A stretch of 55,395 nt of DNA from an uncultured Gammaproteobacteria bacterium (GTDB lineage: Bacteria > Patescibacteriota > Microgenomatia > UBA10105 > UBA927), in NCBI GenBank assembly GCA_964361785.1, contig CAYIBX010000005.1:1-55395 (forward strand), read 5' to 3'. Below the pieces are notes generated by a model. The model did no database searches, was not told the DNA's origin, and was given only the letters and a program-made list of their open reading frames with translations. The position numbers and the translations under genes were made by a program. Positions 38,940 through 49,638 of this stretch are shown here, one piece after another. Positions within the stretch are counted from its first letter, which is position 1; each line of letters opens with the position of its first letter.

Positions 38940-40079
38940 TTAGAGAAGTTTGGTAAGCTCTTTTATAATGTGATCTTGTTCTAAACGTGTAATATCAGCA
39001 AATAACGGCAATCGTAAGAGCTGTTGGCTTATAGAAGTGGTCACTGGCAACGCTTCTTTATCACCACCGGATTTTTTGCCTTGCGGGCTCGAGTGGAGCG
39101 GAATGTAATGAAATGATGCGCCTATGCCGTTTTTTCGTAAGGAGGCTAGTACCTCATCACGTTTTTTAGCCGTTGGCAAGAGAATATAGAAAATATGGGC
39201 ATTGTGTTTGGCCCCTTTGGGAATAGTGGGAAGTTGAAAGAGCCCCTTTTTCTCATAGGGCGATAGTTTCTTCCTATAATACTCATACGCTTTTTTGCGA
39301 AGAGACGTAATTTTATCGATCTTTTCCAGTTGCGCGTAGAGGTACGCCGCTAGCAGGTCACTTGGCAGGTAGCTACTCCCCACATCCATCCATGTATATT
39401 TGTCTACGAGTCCTCGAAAAAATTTGCTTCTATTCGTCCCCTTTTCGCGTATGATTTCTGCTTGTTCTATAATCTTTACATTTTTCGTATTGATAAAGAG
39501 TGCGCCACCTTCACCACACGTGATATTTTTCGTGTCATGAAAACTCAGGCATCCAAAATCGCCAAACGTACCAAGCTGCTTTCTTTTGTATGTGCTCTCT
39601 ATAGCTTGTGCTGCGTCCTCAACGACTTTTAGTTTGTGCTCTCTTGCGATTTTCATTATTGCGTCCATGTCACAAGCGACGCCTGCATAGTGGACGACCA
39701 GTAACGCTTTTGTCTGTGGAGTAATTTTCCGTTTGATATCGTTGGGATCTATGTTTAGCGTATGTGGGTCTACGTCTGCAAATACTGCTTTTAATCCGTG
39801 TTGAAGAAGTATGGCATTGGCAGTTGAGGAGAATGTAAATGATGGCACGATCACCTCGTCGCCCTCGTTTAGATTAAGGAGTCTTACTGCCATCTCAAGC
39901 GCAGTCGTGCCAGACGTGGTCAGAAGTACTTTGGGTACTCCATAGCGTTTTTCAAACCATGCATGAACTTTTTTTGTGTACTCTCCATCTCCCGCCATAT
40001 CCTTCCGGTTATCAACAATATTTCTGATATATTTTATTTCGTTGCCTGTGATGTAGGGCTTGAAAAATGGAATGTTCAT
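38940..40079 (-). CDS. wecE: dTDP-4-amino-4,6-dideoxygalactose transaminase (DegT/DnrJ family)
   Basis: VEDAAQ, SFHDTKN, GEGG, REKGTNRSKFFRG.VDKYTW. Confidence 0.88.
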   Translation of the reverse strand: MNIPFFKPYITGNEIKYIRNIVDNRKDMAGDGEYTKKVHAWFEKRYGVPKVLLTTSGTTALEMAVRLLNLNEGDEVIVPSFTFSSTANAILLQHGLKAVFADVDPHTLNIDPNDIKRKITPQTKALLVVHYAGVACDMDAIMKIAREHKLKVVEDAAQAIESTYKRKQLGTFGDFGCLSFHDTKNITCGEGGALFINTKNVKIIEQAEIIREKGTNRSKFFRGLVDKYTWMDVGSSYLPSDLLAAYLYAQLEKIDKITSLRKKAYEYYRKKLSPYEKKGLFQLPTIPKGAKHNAHIFYILLPTAKKRDEVLASLRKNGIGASFHYIPLHSSPQGKKSGGDKEALPVTTSISQQLLRLPLFADITRLEQDHIIKELTKLL

Positions 40080-40081
40080 AT

Positions 40082-40108
40082 GTGGATCGTGTAGGATTTG
40101 AACCTACA
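40082..40108 (-). pseudogene. Isolated tRNA 3' fragment (T-arm plus acceptor strand)
   Basis: GTAGGTTCAAATCCTAC-ACGATCCA, about 18 nt downstream of tRNA-Val. Confidence 0.7.
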
Positions 40109-40126
40109 TTATATAAGATCCTTAAG

Positions 40127-40198
40127 TGGTCGGTGCAGGATTTGAACCTGCGACATCTGCAATGTGAATGCAGCGCTCTACCGCTGAGCTAACCGACC
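40127..40198 (-). tRNA. tRNA-Val(CAC)
   Basis: GGTCGGT/ACCGACC acceptor; CTGCA-TTCACAT-TGCAG anticodon arm. Confidence 0.95.
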
Positions 40199-40206
40199 AT
40201 ATCTTT

Positions 40207-40294
40207 ATGTGAATACAATGCTCTTCACCCGCGCCCGAACAAATTTGTTTTCAAATTTGCGCGGGTTCGGGTAAACCACTTCAGCTAGACGTCC
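40207..40294 (-). repeat. Degenerate tRNA-Val 5' half with a 50-nt palindromic insert in the D-loop
   Basis: GGACGTCTAGCTGAAGTGGT[TTACCCG...CGGGTGA]AGAGCATTGTATTCACAT. Confidence 0.75.
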
Positions 40295-40551
40295 TTCAAA
40301 TAATTTTTTAGTACTCTCTGTAAATAATTTCGTCCCCACTGCGTTTTAAAGAATTGTTCTCTACTCGTAGCATCTTGTTGATGCAAATACGCTTCGTAAT
40401 AGATTAGAATAAATGGCTTTCTATGTTTAGTACTTTCCACTTTGCCAGAGTTGTGATCTTGAAACCGACGCTTAAGGTTATCTGTATACCCTGAATAGTG
40501 TTTGTTATCGATTAAACTTCGTAAAATATATGTATAGTACACAGAATGCAA
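40285..40551 (-). CDS. Small GIY-YIG endonuclease
   Basis: YYTYIL...HYSGYT.NL.RR...HN.G...ST, ILIYYE, A..RE...K; start TTG 40551 or GTG 40542. Confidence 0.9.
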   Translation of the reverse strand: MHSVYYTYILRSLIDNKHYSGYTDNLKRRFQDHNSGKVESTKHRKPFILIYYEAYLHQQDATSREQFFKTQWGRNYLQRVLKNYLKDV

Positions 40552-40619
40552 CGCTCTTCACCCGTTCAAATTTTTGCATAGCAAAAACTTGTTCGGGTAA
40601 ACCACTGAGCTACAAGTCC
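40544..40619 (-). repeat. Degenerate tRNA-Val 5' half with a 43-nt palindromic insert in the D-loop
   Basis: GGACTTGTAGCTCAGTGGT[TTACCCG...CGGGTGA]AGAGCGTTGCATTC. Confidence 0.75.
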
Positions 40620-40651
40620 TCTAGAGCGTATTATATAAGGAAGATTTATAC

Positions 40652-41251
40652 TTATCCAGCTGCTGTAGCGAGAGAACGTTCATTGGAGAGTCCGAATGTG
40701 GTGCCGTGTTTTTTAAACATGCCCCAGTAGCCTAATTTCTTTTTGCGCCCCACACTCATATTGAGCCACACGCGACTGTCTTCAATTTGCTGGCGAAGAA
40801 CATGGATAAATGTACGCAGTTGATCGTAGTAGTTTATGTGATATATGCCCGGTGCCACAGGCGTTTGTTCTATAGCAGATTGCACGTCTTGACTTAGGTT
40901 TTTCAGAGACTGGGAAAGCGCCTTTAATTCTTGGCGTACTGCCTCAAGCTGTTGTCTAGTTTGTTCGGTGATAGCGTCGATAGATGTATTAGATACTTCC
41001 ATTTTTGGTGCTTCCATTTGCGGTTTGGCTACTTCCTGTACTTGAACGCCTAGTTCTATCGTTTGATTGGGCTGAAGCTCTCCTGATACTGGTAGAGCGC
41101 CACCAACTAGAGAAGAAAATATAGTTTCGCCGATAGTTGTAGCCATAGTTGCCGTATTGATTGCCACGTCAGAACTTACGCCGCGAAGCTGCTCGAGCAC
41201 ATTATCGTTTTTGAAATTGACAGGCTTATTTTTTGGAGTCGTTTTGGTCAT
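40652..41251 (-). CDS. DUF5660-like protein
   Basis: GIYHINYY...IEDSRVWL...YWGMFKKHGTTFGLSNER C-terminus (family recalled, not searched). Confidence 0.65.
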   Translation of the reverse strand: MTKTTPKNKPVNFKNDNVLEQLRGVSSDVAINTATMATTIGETIFSSLVGGALPVSGELQPNQTIELGVQVQEVAKPQMEAPKMEVSNTSIDAITEQTRQQLEAVRQELKALSQSLKNLSQDVQSAIEQTPVAPGIYHINYYDQLRTFIHVLRQQIEDSRVWLNMSVGRKKKLGYWGMFKKHGTTFGLSNERSLATAAG

Positions 41252-41312
41252 GTGGCGCAATTATACTACATGAGCGCAAATAAAACAAAAAAATTTAACG
41301 CGAATAAATTTC

Positions 41313-49484: not shown

Positions 49485-49512
49485 AGAGTACTCTTTAAAA
49501 GAAAATCTTGTG

Positions 49513-49583
49513 AGCGGATGAAGGGAATCGAACCCTCGTCACCAGTTTGGAAAACTGGCGCTCTACCATTGAGCTACACCCGC
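49513..49583 (-). tRNA. tRNA-Gly(TCC)
   Basis: CCAGT-TTTCCAA-ACTGG anticodon arm; U73. Confidence 0.95.
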
Positions 49584-49586
49584 AAT

Positions 49587-49638
49587 TCTACCATTGTCAG
49601 CCCAAGGCTGATCGTCCTTTGGACGAAGCTACACCCGC
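49587..49638 (-). repeat. Duplicated tRNA-Gly 5' end interrupted by the 30-nt double-hairpin element
   Basis: GCGGGTGTAGCT[TCGTCCAAAGGACGATCAGCCTTGGGCTGA]CAATGGTAGA, 3 nt upstream of the intact GCGGGTGTAGCTCAATGGTAGA. Confidence 0.9.

Follow-up and report, generated by a model that had tools for sequence, protein, structure and literature searches.

Among GIY-YIG nucleases that cut tRNA genes and spread with them, the nearest studied case to the element described here is SegB of phage T4. According to the available part of the report (PMC2330249), SegB is a free-standing GIY-YIG homing endonuclease whose gene lies in the phage tRNA gene cluster and is missing in close relatives. The enzyme cleaves tRNA genes and recognises one of their conserved motifs (the T-psi-C stem-loop; 27-bp site); through its action, its own gene and the neighbouring tRNA genes spread jointly, and markers of the recipient are lost. 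In this work, we have analysed a small GIY-YIG nuclease cassette at the tRNA-Val(CAC) gene of an uncultured groundwater bacterium, whose genome has 1.11 Mb. The whole stretch of DNA that was analysed, 55,395 nucleotides long (assembly GCA_964361785.1, contig CAYIBX010000005.1, positions 1 to 55,395), is called the window below. As with SegB, a GIY-YIG gene is found among tRNA genes and is present or absent among close relatives. Actually, the site is filled in the window and in the relative G005 and empty in the relative G006, and the tRNA-Leu(GAG) and tRNA-Gly(CCC) sites of the genome vary likewise. On the other hand, the window protein has 88 aa and one domain, scores below the cutoff for group I intron endonucleases, and does not have the extra DNA-binding domain of the Seg-type homing endonucleases. 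Moreover, the available part of the SegB paper makes no mention of hairpins, of a split resident tRNA, or of an abutting replacement tRNA.

Among the mini GIY-YIG proteins paired with hairpins, the nearest are the nucleases of the Ssn family, cd10448 of CDD. As far as the accessible part of Chenal et al. 2025 (PMC11893778) describes them, SsnA cuts single-stranded DNA (ssDNA) near its flanking inverted repeats, repeat and protein form specific pairs, and the hairpin repeats are known as NTS/SRM; the authors note a layout like that of insertion sequences and a parallel to REP/RAYT. Like the window protein, the Ssn proteins have a single domain and ~90 aa, and their genes are flanked by hairpins. 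However, the hairpins of the window miss the published SRM pattern, and their copy number here is very low.

The best matches of the window protein in the PDB, both by sequence and by fold, are the UPF0213 proteins (BH0048, EF2693) and the nuclease domain of Slx1. The former are without an assigned function. Slx1, a branched-DNA nuclease by the titles of its PDB entries, works with Slx4 and has a further domain, and no such partner is evident in the window. The likeness to REP/RAYT lies in a nuclease gene flanked by short palindromes that are also found elsewhere in the genome. RAYTs are HUH/Y1 transposases with covalent intermediates, whereas the sole Pfam hit of the window protein is GIY-YIG, a hydrolytic domain and not HUH (Y1); we know of no strand-transfer activity of this domain. 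In addition, the dispersed palindromes are many in REP/RAYT and only three in this genome, and there is no tight link to tRNA genes in REP/RAYT. Finally, in synthetic cleave-and-rescue or home-and-rescue drives a nuclease comes together with a functional, recoded version of the essential gene that it disrupts, but these drives are engineered, RNA-guided, and belong to sexual eukaryotes.

What sets the window element apart from both the free-standing homing nucleases and the hairpin-paired mini GIY-YIG proteins is a replacement tRNA together with hairpin-studded tRNA remnants. In the full-text literature that was searched (main texts, with few subscription journals), no description of mini GIY-YIG cassettes in bacterial tRNA genes was found. 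In the available part of the 2006 survey of the GIY-YIG superfamily (PMC1564403), tRNA is mentioned for a methyltransferase fusion only.

Organization of the tRNA-Val(CAC) locus

Our preferred explanation, held with moderate confidence, is that the locus is a layered insertion at tRNA-Val(CAC), where a small selfish homing-type cassette has repeatedly overwritten the tRNA gene. The parts of this explanation differ in strength. The cassette is very likely a mobile insertion, and the replacement tRNA probably travels with it. The chance that the nuclease itself drives the process by cutting tRNA-gene DNA is about even. The features of the locus, in the order in which they are read, are as follows.

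40630..40658, minus strand: sigma-70-like promoter, TGGATA-17-TATAAT, 10/12 matches; promoter of the resident tRNA-Val, now before piece 1 and the open reading frame (ORF)
40544..40619, minus strand: tRNA-Val 5' piece 1, with acceptor strand GGACTTG, D arm, 5' strand of the anticodon stem and the first loop bases
40558..40600, minus strand: hairpin A, 43 nt, within the D loop of piece 1
40285..40551, minus strand: GIY-YIG nuclease ORF, 88 aa from TTG at 40551 or 85 aa from GTG at 40542
40207..40294, minus strand: tRNA-Val 5' piece 2, with GGACGTC, D arm with hairpin B, TTGTA, and loop TTCACAT
40225..40274, minus strand: hairpin B, 50 nt, of the same D-loop position and family as hairpin A
40126..40198, minus strand: intact tRNA-Val(CAC), allele type D, GGTCGGT...ACCGACC (ARAGORN; Rfam 73.5 bits)
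40082..40121, minus strand: remnant of the ancestral resident tRNA-Val(CAC), with its first 5 nt, a filler, and its last 26 nt

This layout agrees in every element with the initial annotation of the window, which had listed a promoter, two 5' pieces with D-loop hairpins, the ORF, an intact tRNA-Val and a T-arm fragment at these places on the minus strand. The promoter is the sole promoter-like site that a promoter scan has found within 39900-40900. A CCTTATATAAT box also precedes the tRNA in G006 and G005, and the window promoter aligns with the resident tRNA promoters of both, in keeping with the earlier suggestion that the cassette uses the tRNA promoter.

Piece 1 reads GGACTTG TA GCTC AGTGGT, then the hairpin (40600..40558), then A GAGC G TTGCA TTC. 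The stop codon of the ORF, TAG (40287..40285), consists of nucleotides 8-10 of piece 2. The two pieces share repeats of 16 nt (100%) and 21 nt (90%) that lie 326-333 nt apart, and their hairpins have the common ends TTACCCG...CGGGTGA. Both pieces end in or just past the anticodon loop, so that of the anticodon stem they retain no more than the 5' strand, and neither of them is called as a tRNA by ARAGORN or Rfam. The intact tRNA-Val(CAC) (40198..40126) is separated from piece 2 by 8 nt and is the genome's only Val(CAC) gene. The remnant that follows is made up of GGATC (40121..40117), the filler TTATATAAT (40116..40108), which resembles a -10 box, and the T arm with the 3' acceptor strand (40107..40082). 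Downstream of it, a gene for a DegT-type aminotransferase begins at 40079.

A group I intron or a split tRNA has been considered and rejected. The Rfam search of 39500-41300 (E up to 10) gave no intron or ribozyme family; besides, both pieces are 5' halves, and ~330 nt is too short for a ribozyme plus an ORF.

The same locus in relatives

The sequence of the locus has been inspected in 16 members of the genus. In the same family, a DUF5660 gene is followed by tRNA-Val(CAC) within 460 nt of its stop at 20 of 23 loci. The gap between the two ranges from 35 to 76 nt at 11 loci and amounts to 94 nt at one; at the other eight it is 133-457 nt, and these long gaps include those of the window (457 nt), G005 (360 nt) and G013 (364 nt). 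G006, which is among the three closest relatives, has an undisturbed site with the same flanking genes as the window. There, a promoter/leader spacer of 34 nt separates the stop of the upstream gene from tRNA-Val(CAC), and the order is a CCTTATATAAT promoter, a 9-nt leader, a tRNA-Val(CAC) starting with GGATCGT, 2 nt, and the same aminotransferase gene. The initial annotation had regarded the cassette as an insertion, and by this comparison the empty site of a close relative supports that view well.

The 26-nt fragment of the window is the exact 3' end of the intact resident tRNA in G016 and G003. It adjoins the same downstream aminotransferase gene as in G006, and the GGATC before it is the same as the first 5 nt of the resident. 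Based on this identity, position and start, the fragment is what remains of the displaced resident. The genome's tRNA-Val(GAC) (contig C35) has been rejected as the gene of which it is a copy: this gene matches at 25 of the 26 nt, the ancestral Val(CAC) at 26 of 26, and the latter is preferred for this reason and for its same position before the downstream gene. Similar 3' remnants are kept in G005 and G011.

At the 16 genus loci, the orthologous tRNA-Val(CAC) shows four types of acceptor stem.

Type A, GGATCGT: 3 loci
Type B, GGGCGCA or GCTCGC: 8 loci
Type C, GGACACG: 3 loci (G005, G010 and G007), mutually identical
Type D, GGTCGGT: the window and G013, identical at 73/73 nt

Types C and D each recur without change in genomes whose DUF5660 proteins share just 54-60% identity. 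They occur only where hairpin-bearing broken pieces of type A or B surround them, which is the case at all five loci. Between type D and type A there are paired changes only, at three acceptor-stem pairs and one T-stem pair. G013 is the clearest case. There, the type-D tRNA adjoins a GIY-YIG ORF that is 32% identical to that of the window, and the order is the resident 5' part, a hairpin of 17 nt that takes exactly the place of the anticodon arm, the ORF, the type-D tRNA, and the resident 3' part, with the insert flanked by a 32-nt direct repeat. In G010 and G007, the type-B gene is split by a type-C tRNA with no ORF, and in G011 an intact type-B tRNA is followed by a type-A 3' remnant, again with no ORF.

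These comparisons reveal that the intact tRNA of the window is evidently an immigrant replacement allele and not the resident. In this point the initial annotation has to be reversed: it had taken the intact tRNA, which is identical to the immigrant allele of G013, as the resident, and had called a spare T arm what are the remains of the true resident (26/26 nt).

History of the insertions

When the window and G005 are aligned, the promoter, piece 1, the hairpin and the ORF correspond, the two sequences diverge where the tRNA after the ORF begins, and they rejoin at the type-A remnant. In G005, the ORF ends inside an intact type-C (GGACACG) tRNA-Val, at the place that piece 2 has in the window, and after this tRNA comes another copy, whose D loop and anticodon loop each contain a hairpin. 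It is to this hairpin-bearing copy that piece 2 corresponds, and AGAGCATTG is common to both. Judging from the alignment, piece 2 represents the ORF-abutting tRNA of G005 in a decayed copy.

Piece 1 (GGACTTG) matches neither the resident nor the intact tRNA, but agrees with the 5' end that tRNA-Val(GAC) has in G023 (GGACTTGTAGCTCAGTTGGT), a member of a different genus, where an ORF with 74% identity lies behind the same D-loop hairpin and before the intact tRNA-Val(GAC). Since piece 1 matches the host tRNA of that cassette, the cassette carries a piece of an earlier host tRNA. That is, piece 1 is evidently foreign to the locus, just as the initial annotation had supposed when it spoke of tRNA pieces acquired elsewhere. 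The same layout is seen at locus L106, with a different 5' piece, a different intact tRNA, and a 3' remnant.

The best reading of these alignments is that at least two rounds of insertion have occurred at the locus. In the first round, a cassette of the G005 type (piece 1, hairpin, ORF, and its own tRNA) would have arrived from a tRNA-Val(GAC) context. Later, the cassette's own tRNA would have gained a hairpin and been truncated to piece 2. A second replacement allele, common to G013, would now be in service, and the ancestral gene would survive only as 5 + 26 nt.

The nuclease and its hairpins

The ORF matches the GIY-YIG family of Pfam (PF01541) with an E value of 2.1e-14 and 54 bits (cutoff 22.6) over residues 5-73 of 88, and no further Pfam domain is present. 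The group I intron endonuclease model of NCBIfam (TIGR01453) gives 23.5 bits, below its cutoff of 56.05, and is matched at positions 5-79 of 215 only; the protein is without the C-terminal part of this model. The closest sequences in the PDB are 1YWL (E 8.3e-7) and 1ZG2 (E 4.1e-5), the UPF0213 proteins EF2693 and BH0048. An AlphaFold (AF2) model made from 16 aligned members has a pLDDT of 93, and a Foldseek search with it puts 1ZG2 (BH0048) first, followed by Slx1 chains (7CQ2, 6SEI), with I-TevI at rank 22. By these matches and by the predicted fold, the nuclease is a single-domain, Slx1/UPF0213-like GIY-YIG protein.

Across the 16 aligned members, Y6, Y8, Y19, G21, R29 and H33 are invariant and E53 is near-invariant, and the same pattern is seen over the 35 loci of the lineage sample described below. 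We take the conserved Tyr motifs, Arg and Glu to be the active-site residues of the GIY-YIG superfamily. For the ORF and its G005 ortholog (92% identical), the ratio of non-synonymous to synonymous substitution rates (dN/dS) is 0.11, which indicates that the nuclease gene has been kept by selection. The gene is intact and under purifying selection.

Each arm of the hairpins follows the pattern ACCCG-NN-CAA(A/G)TTT, and the NN pair is mismatched in the copies inspected. Folded as DNA, hairpin A reaches -13 kcal/mol (z -5.2) and hairpin B -16.5 kcal/mol (z -4.6), and none of 200 shuffles folds as well as they do. The same family is found at the same D-loop position in G005, G023, L106, L107 and L110. 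Overall, the broken tRNA copies have hairpins in, or in place of, their natural stem-loops: in the D loop (the window, G005 and G023), in the anticodon arm (G013 and L064), in the anticodon loop (G005), or in the T loop (the tRNA-Gly remnant of G005, and L106). Other GIY-YIG subgroups have other hairpins, and the type of hairpin co-varies with the protein subgroup. By this covariation, protein and hairpin are evidently paired.

The 1.11-Mb genome has three copies of the hairpin, and its relatives have 0 to 10 pattern matches each (one mismatch allowed). The third copy, TTTACCCG...CGGGT, is inside a glmS ribozyme (L066:947-986, contig C7:35446-35485), where it lies in an insert of 85 nt versus 10 nt in the Rfam model; the ribozyme still scores 66 bits. 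In G001 (L089:1500-1620) and G030 (L080:1500-1600), two hairpins of the family stand at matching places in a conserved structured RNA, which in G001 has a weak match to the cobalamin riboswitch (E 0.0012, below the family threshold). Contig C25 of G005 (L094:1495-1730) has a tandem array of at least 3-4 hairpin units of 39 nt, interrupted by an N run. The initial annotation had proposed that short palindromes may be mobilised. This proposal holds in so far as the family also occurs away from GIY-YIG genes, but there are only three copies in the genome.

Elsewhere in the window, a second scar with hairpins precedes a tRNA gene.

49584..49638, minus strand: ORF-less scar before tRNA-Gly(TCC), preceded by a promoter and made up of nt 1-12 of tRNA-Gly(TCC), two 15-nt hairpins, and D-loop residue

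Its hairpins (49626..49612 and 49611..49597, TCGTCCAAAGGACGA and TCAGCCTTGGGCTGA) resemble those of GIY-YIG subgroup A, and the scar directly precedes the intact tRNA-Gly(TCC) (49583..49512). It looks like a cassette of another GIY-YIG subgroup whose ORF was lost.

Association with tRNA genes

To describe the lineage, we have used a sample of 35 loci, namely the six GIY-YIG loci of this genome and the best 29 from 40 relatives. In this lineage the GIY-YIG genes are associated with tRNA genes. A co-oriented tRNA is found within 160 nt at 26 of the 35 loci, and in this genome five of the six paralogs adjoin tRNA genes. The nine loci without such a tRNA are L006, L040, L042, L050, L054, L058, L060, L061 and L063. 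At 18 of the 35 loci the tRNA starts at -22 to +9 of the ORF stop (among them L046, counted from the end of the protein match), and where the offset is -9, the ORF stop is the tRNA's own T8-A9-G10. For 12 of the 20 loci with a tRNA after the ORF, the longest string shared by the tRNA and the 350 nt before the ORF (9-24 nt) starts at tRNA nt 1-2; the length of this string alone is within the range of shuffles, while a start at position 1 is expected about once in 70. As for the occupancy of other sites, the tRNA-Leu(GAG) site is filled in this genome and empty in G006, and the tRNA-Gly(CCC) site is filled in this genome and empty in G005, G006 and G011. In G006, it is the adjacent tRNA-Asp that a GIY-YIG gene precedes.

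Beyond the lineage, a broad sample has been taken from species-representative genomes with a query alignment of six members; it comprises the best 80 loci among at least 550 confirmed relatives. The six closest homologs listed (62-77% identity) are all linked to tRNA-Val or tRNA-Asp (five by ARAGORN, L109 by inspection of the sequence), and they have the TTTACCCG...CGGGT hairpin family in or beside the D loop, with a diverged copy in L108. Their records are labelled Microgenomates, Daviesbacteria or Patescibacteria, except for three third-party annotation assemblies labelled Gammaproteobacteria. At 32 of the 80 loci (L113-L143 and others), which represent a related GIY-YIG subgroup spread over several phyla, an inverted repeat encloses the ORF; its upstream arm is CCCTGTTAAAT, and ATTTAACAGGG makes up the last codons. 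The changes between the arms are compensatory, and by eye the arms resemble those of the window hairpins.

Proposed mechanism

In the preferred explanation, the unit would consist of a single-domain Slx1/UPF0213-like GIY-YIG gene, a cognate hairpin in the loop of a broken tRNA, and a complete replacement tRNA. The layouts of G005, G013, G023 and L106 suggest that the ORF and the replacement tRNA belong together in this way. The nuclease would cut structured DNA of a tRNA gene, either a hairpin or a cloverleaf. Since the protein is Slx1-like and has no DNA-binding domain, it would be expected to recognise the shape of DNA, that is, its own hairpin and perhaps the single-stranded cloverleaf of a tRNA gene. 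A copy that bears the cassette would serve as template for repair of the break, with recombination via the tRNA-derived flanks, as in homing. This would leave the resident tRNA in pieces, while the co-converted tRNA allele of the cassette would keep the cell supplied and the ORF would be read from the resident tRNA promoter. The replaced tRNA allele next to the ORF is compatible with the co-conversion of flanks in homing. The target of the nuclease, the copying of the cassette and the role of the hairpin are what we infer from the arrangement of these loci.

A bolder version, which we put forward only tentatively and regard as rather unlikely, is a natural 'cut and replace' drive, in which the mini-nuclease would recognise its own hairpin and the single-stranded cloverleaf of the tRNA gene and would carry a stem-recoded, cut-resistant tRNA. 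The resistance of the replacement tRNA is suggested by its paired stem changes. The DNA would be released or broken, and the segment with tRNA-derived homology arms would recombine into any related tRNA gene, possibly after DNA uptake between cells. Successive rounds of this process would explain the four acceptor stems within one genus, the loci that look like graveyards of hairpin-studded tRNA pieces, and the hairpins in the loops of other structured RNAs (glmS ribozyme, cobalamin riboswitch).

If the preferred explanation is true, ~330 nt, made up of a nuclease of 85-88 aa and one hairpin, would suffice to invade essential tRNA genes, and the host would survive the invasion because the unit brings a spare tRNA. 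It would also give a biological role to part of the large uncharacterised class of mini GIY-YIG proteins, explain why, in these reduced genomes, the tRNA stems of close relatives have diverged to an unusual extent, and offer small candidate nucleases whose specificity is possibly set by DNA hairpins or cloverleaf shapes. For annotation, hairpin-bearing tRNA-like fragments near small ORFs would then not be read as odd tRNAs or introns.

Several observations weigh against this explanation. In the window, the ORF does not abut the intact tRNA, as piece 2 intervenes. The central 41 nt are identical in all Val(CAC) alleles, so that a nuclease reading that part would cut the replacement too. In the contigs of the likely source samples, no variation in presence or absence has been found. 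The tRNA-Leu(GAG) site has no clear 3' remnant (a 9-nt match), and its tRNA differs from the empty allele by 1 bp; a simple insertion with a 9-nt duplication fits this site as well as a replacement does. Furthermore, the genomes compared are related to one another and several of the loci are orthologs, so that fewer independent events took place than the counts suggest; for example, the type-A 3' remnant shared by G000, G005 and G011 may go back to one ancestral disruption. Finally, only 14 of the 80 loci of the broad sample have an adjacent co-oriented tRNA (nine downstream and five upstream), which means that the tRNA habit belongs to sub-families and not to all homologs. The expectation of the initial annotation that homologs stand at tRNA genes is therefore right for the lineage (26/35) and the six closest homologs listed, but not for the broad sample. 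Overall, what the initial annotation had observed is confirmed, and its interpretation is partly supported; the autonomous, REP/RAYT-like movement that it had proposed is not among the supported points.

Alternative explanations

The main rival, which we consider unlikely, is a nuclease of the Ssn type. That is, a site-specific ssDNA nuclease would recognise its flanking hairpins and be kept by the cell to modulate DNA uptake or recombination; the tRNA gene would then be a convenient, well-expressed landing place and the tRNA pieces would be by-products. SsnA-like proteins are single-domain proteins of ~94 aa with genes flanked by inverted repeats of 20-50 nt (according to the same accessible part of PMC11893778), and the window ORF likewise codes for a single domain and lies between two hairpins that belong to one family. 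The co-variation of hairpin type with protein subgroup, and the hairpins that occur alone or in a tandem array, point in the same direction. However, the published SRM consensus has no match in 39900-40900 and one match in the whole genome, and the three hairpin copies here stand against hundreds in Neisseria, as given in the part of PMC11893778 at hand; the word 'tRNA' is absent from the main text of that paper. In addition, the presence of the gene varies among congeners, each paralog is at a different tRNA, and the residents are replaced, all of which speaks for a selfish and not for a housekeeping element.

It is improbable, although some loci fit it, that the nuclease is a passive passenger, i.e., that tRNA genes are shuffled by recombination between paralogs and by uptake of foreign alleles, that the ORF and the hairpins travel along with them, and that the protein has an unrelated role in repair. 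The loci in question are the ORF-less replacements in G011, G010 and G007, the tRNA-Gly(CCC) of G005, which has a 3' remnant without an ORF, and the ORF-less hairpin scar at the tRNA-Gly(TCC) of the window. But decayed copies of a mobile element would look like such ORF-less scars as well. A passenger would also leave unexplained the narrow junction between ORF stop and tRNA start (-22 to +9), which is found at 18 of 35 loci with many different tRNAs, the co-variation of hairpin and protein, and the purifying selection on the ORF.

A function at the RNA level is very improbable. Here, the pieces would be made as RNAs, for example as mRNA-stabilising 5' structures or as tRNA decoys, and the hairpins would be structural modules of RNA. 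The pieces do lie inside the tRNA transcription unit, downstream of the sole promoter-like site, and the same hairpin is found in peripheral loops of the glmS ribozyme, which keeps its 66 bits, and in the cobalamin-riboswitch-like RNA (sub-threshold at E 0.0012), so it is tolerated in folded RNAs. On the other hand, near-identical hairpins in unrelated RNAs, together with the tandem array of G005, indicate copying at the DNA level, and the pieces have no 3' halves and are not recognised as tRNAs.

The least probable explanation, and one that we judge quite unlikely, is an assembly chimera of two strains joined in the conserved tRNA-Val core: the Logan contigs of the likely source runs do break inside the tRNA and no single listed contig spans the stretch, but the contigs from the two sides share an overlap of 12 nt in X1 and of 27 nt in X2 and carry the matching halves GGTCGGT/ACCGACC of one allele, and in the independently assembled G005 the promoter, piece 1 and the ORF are arranged in the same way, with a 3' remnant of the same kind. 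Run X5 covers a part of the downstream gene only. In run X6, which belongs to another study, a contig of ~94% identity joins the ORF end to the tRNA via GGAC+ACG, as in G005, and a second contig joins the tRNA to the end of the DUF5660 gene; the sides are of 30 nt and probably come from relatives, and neither contig has been counted as evidence.

Other tRNA genes

ARAGORN finds 46 tRNAs in this genome, with none for tRNA-Asn or tRNA-Ala(TGC) and only one tRNA with the anticodon CAT. Some of the absent tRNAs may be unassembled, or may have been missed owing to inserts like those described above.

The tRNA-Gly(CCC) orthologs have a different acceptor stem in each of four congeners (L100-L102 are among the loci). 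In G005 (L101:2222-2284), a 3' remnant of a tRNA-Gly(CCC) of the G011 type has a hairpin in its T loop, with no ORF nearby.

On contig C42 of this genome (L005:1295-1380), ARAGORN reports a tRNA-Ser with the unusual anticodon ACT. This gene and the two tRNA-Ser genes on contig C3 (L004) are each followed by ~130 nt of GC-rich, hairpin-rich DNA. The sequences after the three genes share GGATTCGGCTCGG...CAGCGAGATAAATCCGC, and two of the three then lead to a GIY-YIG ORF.

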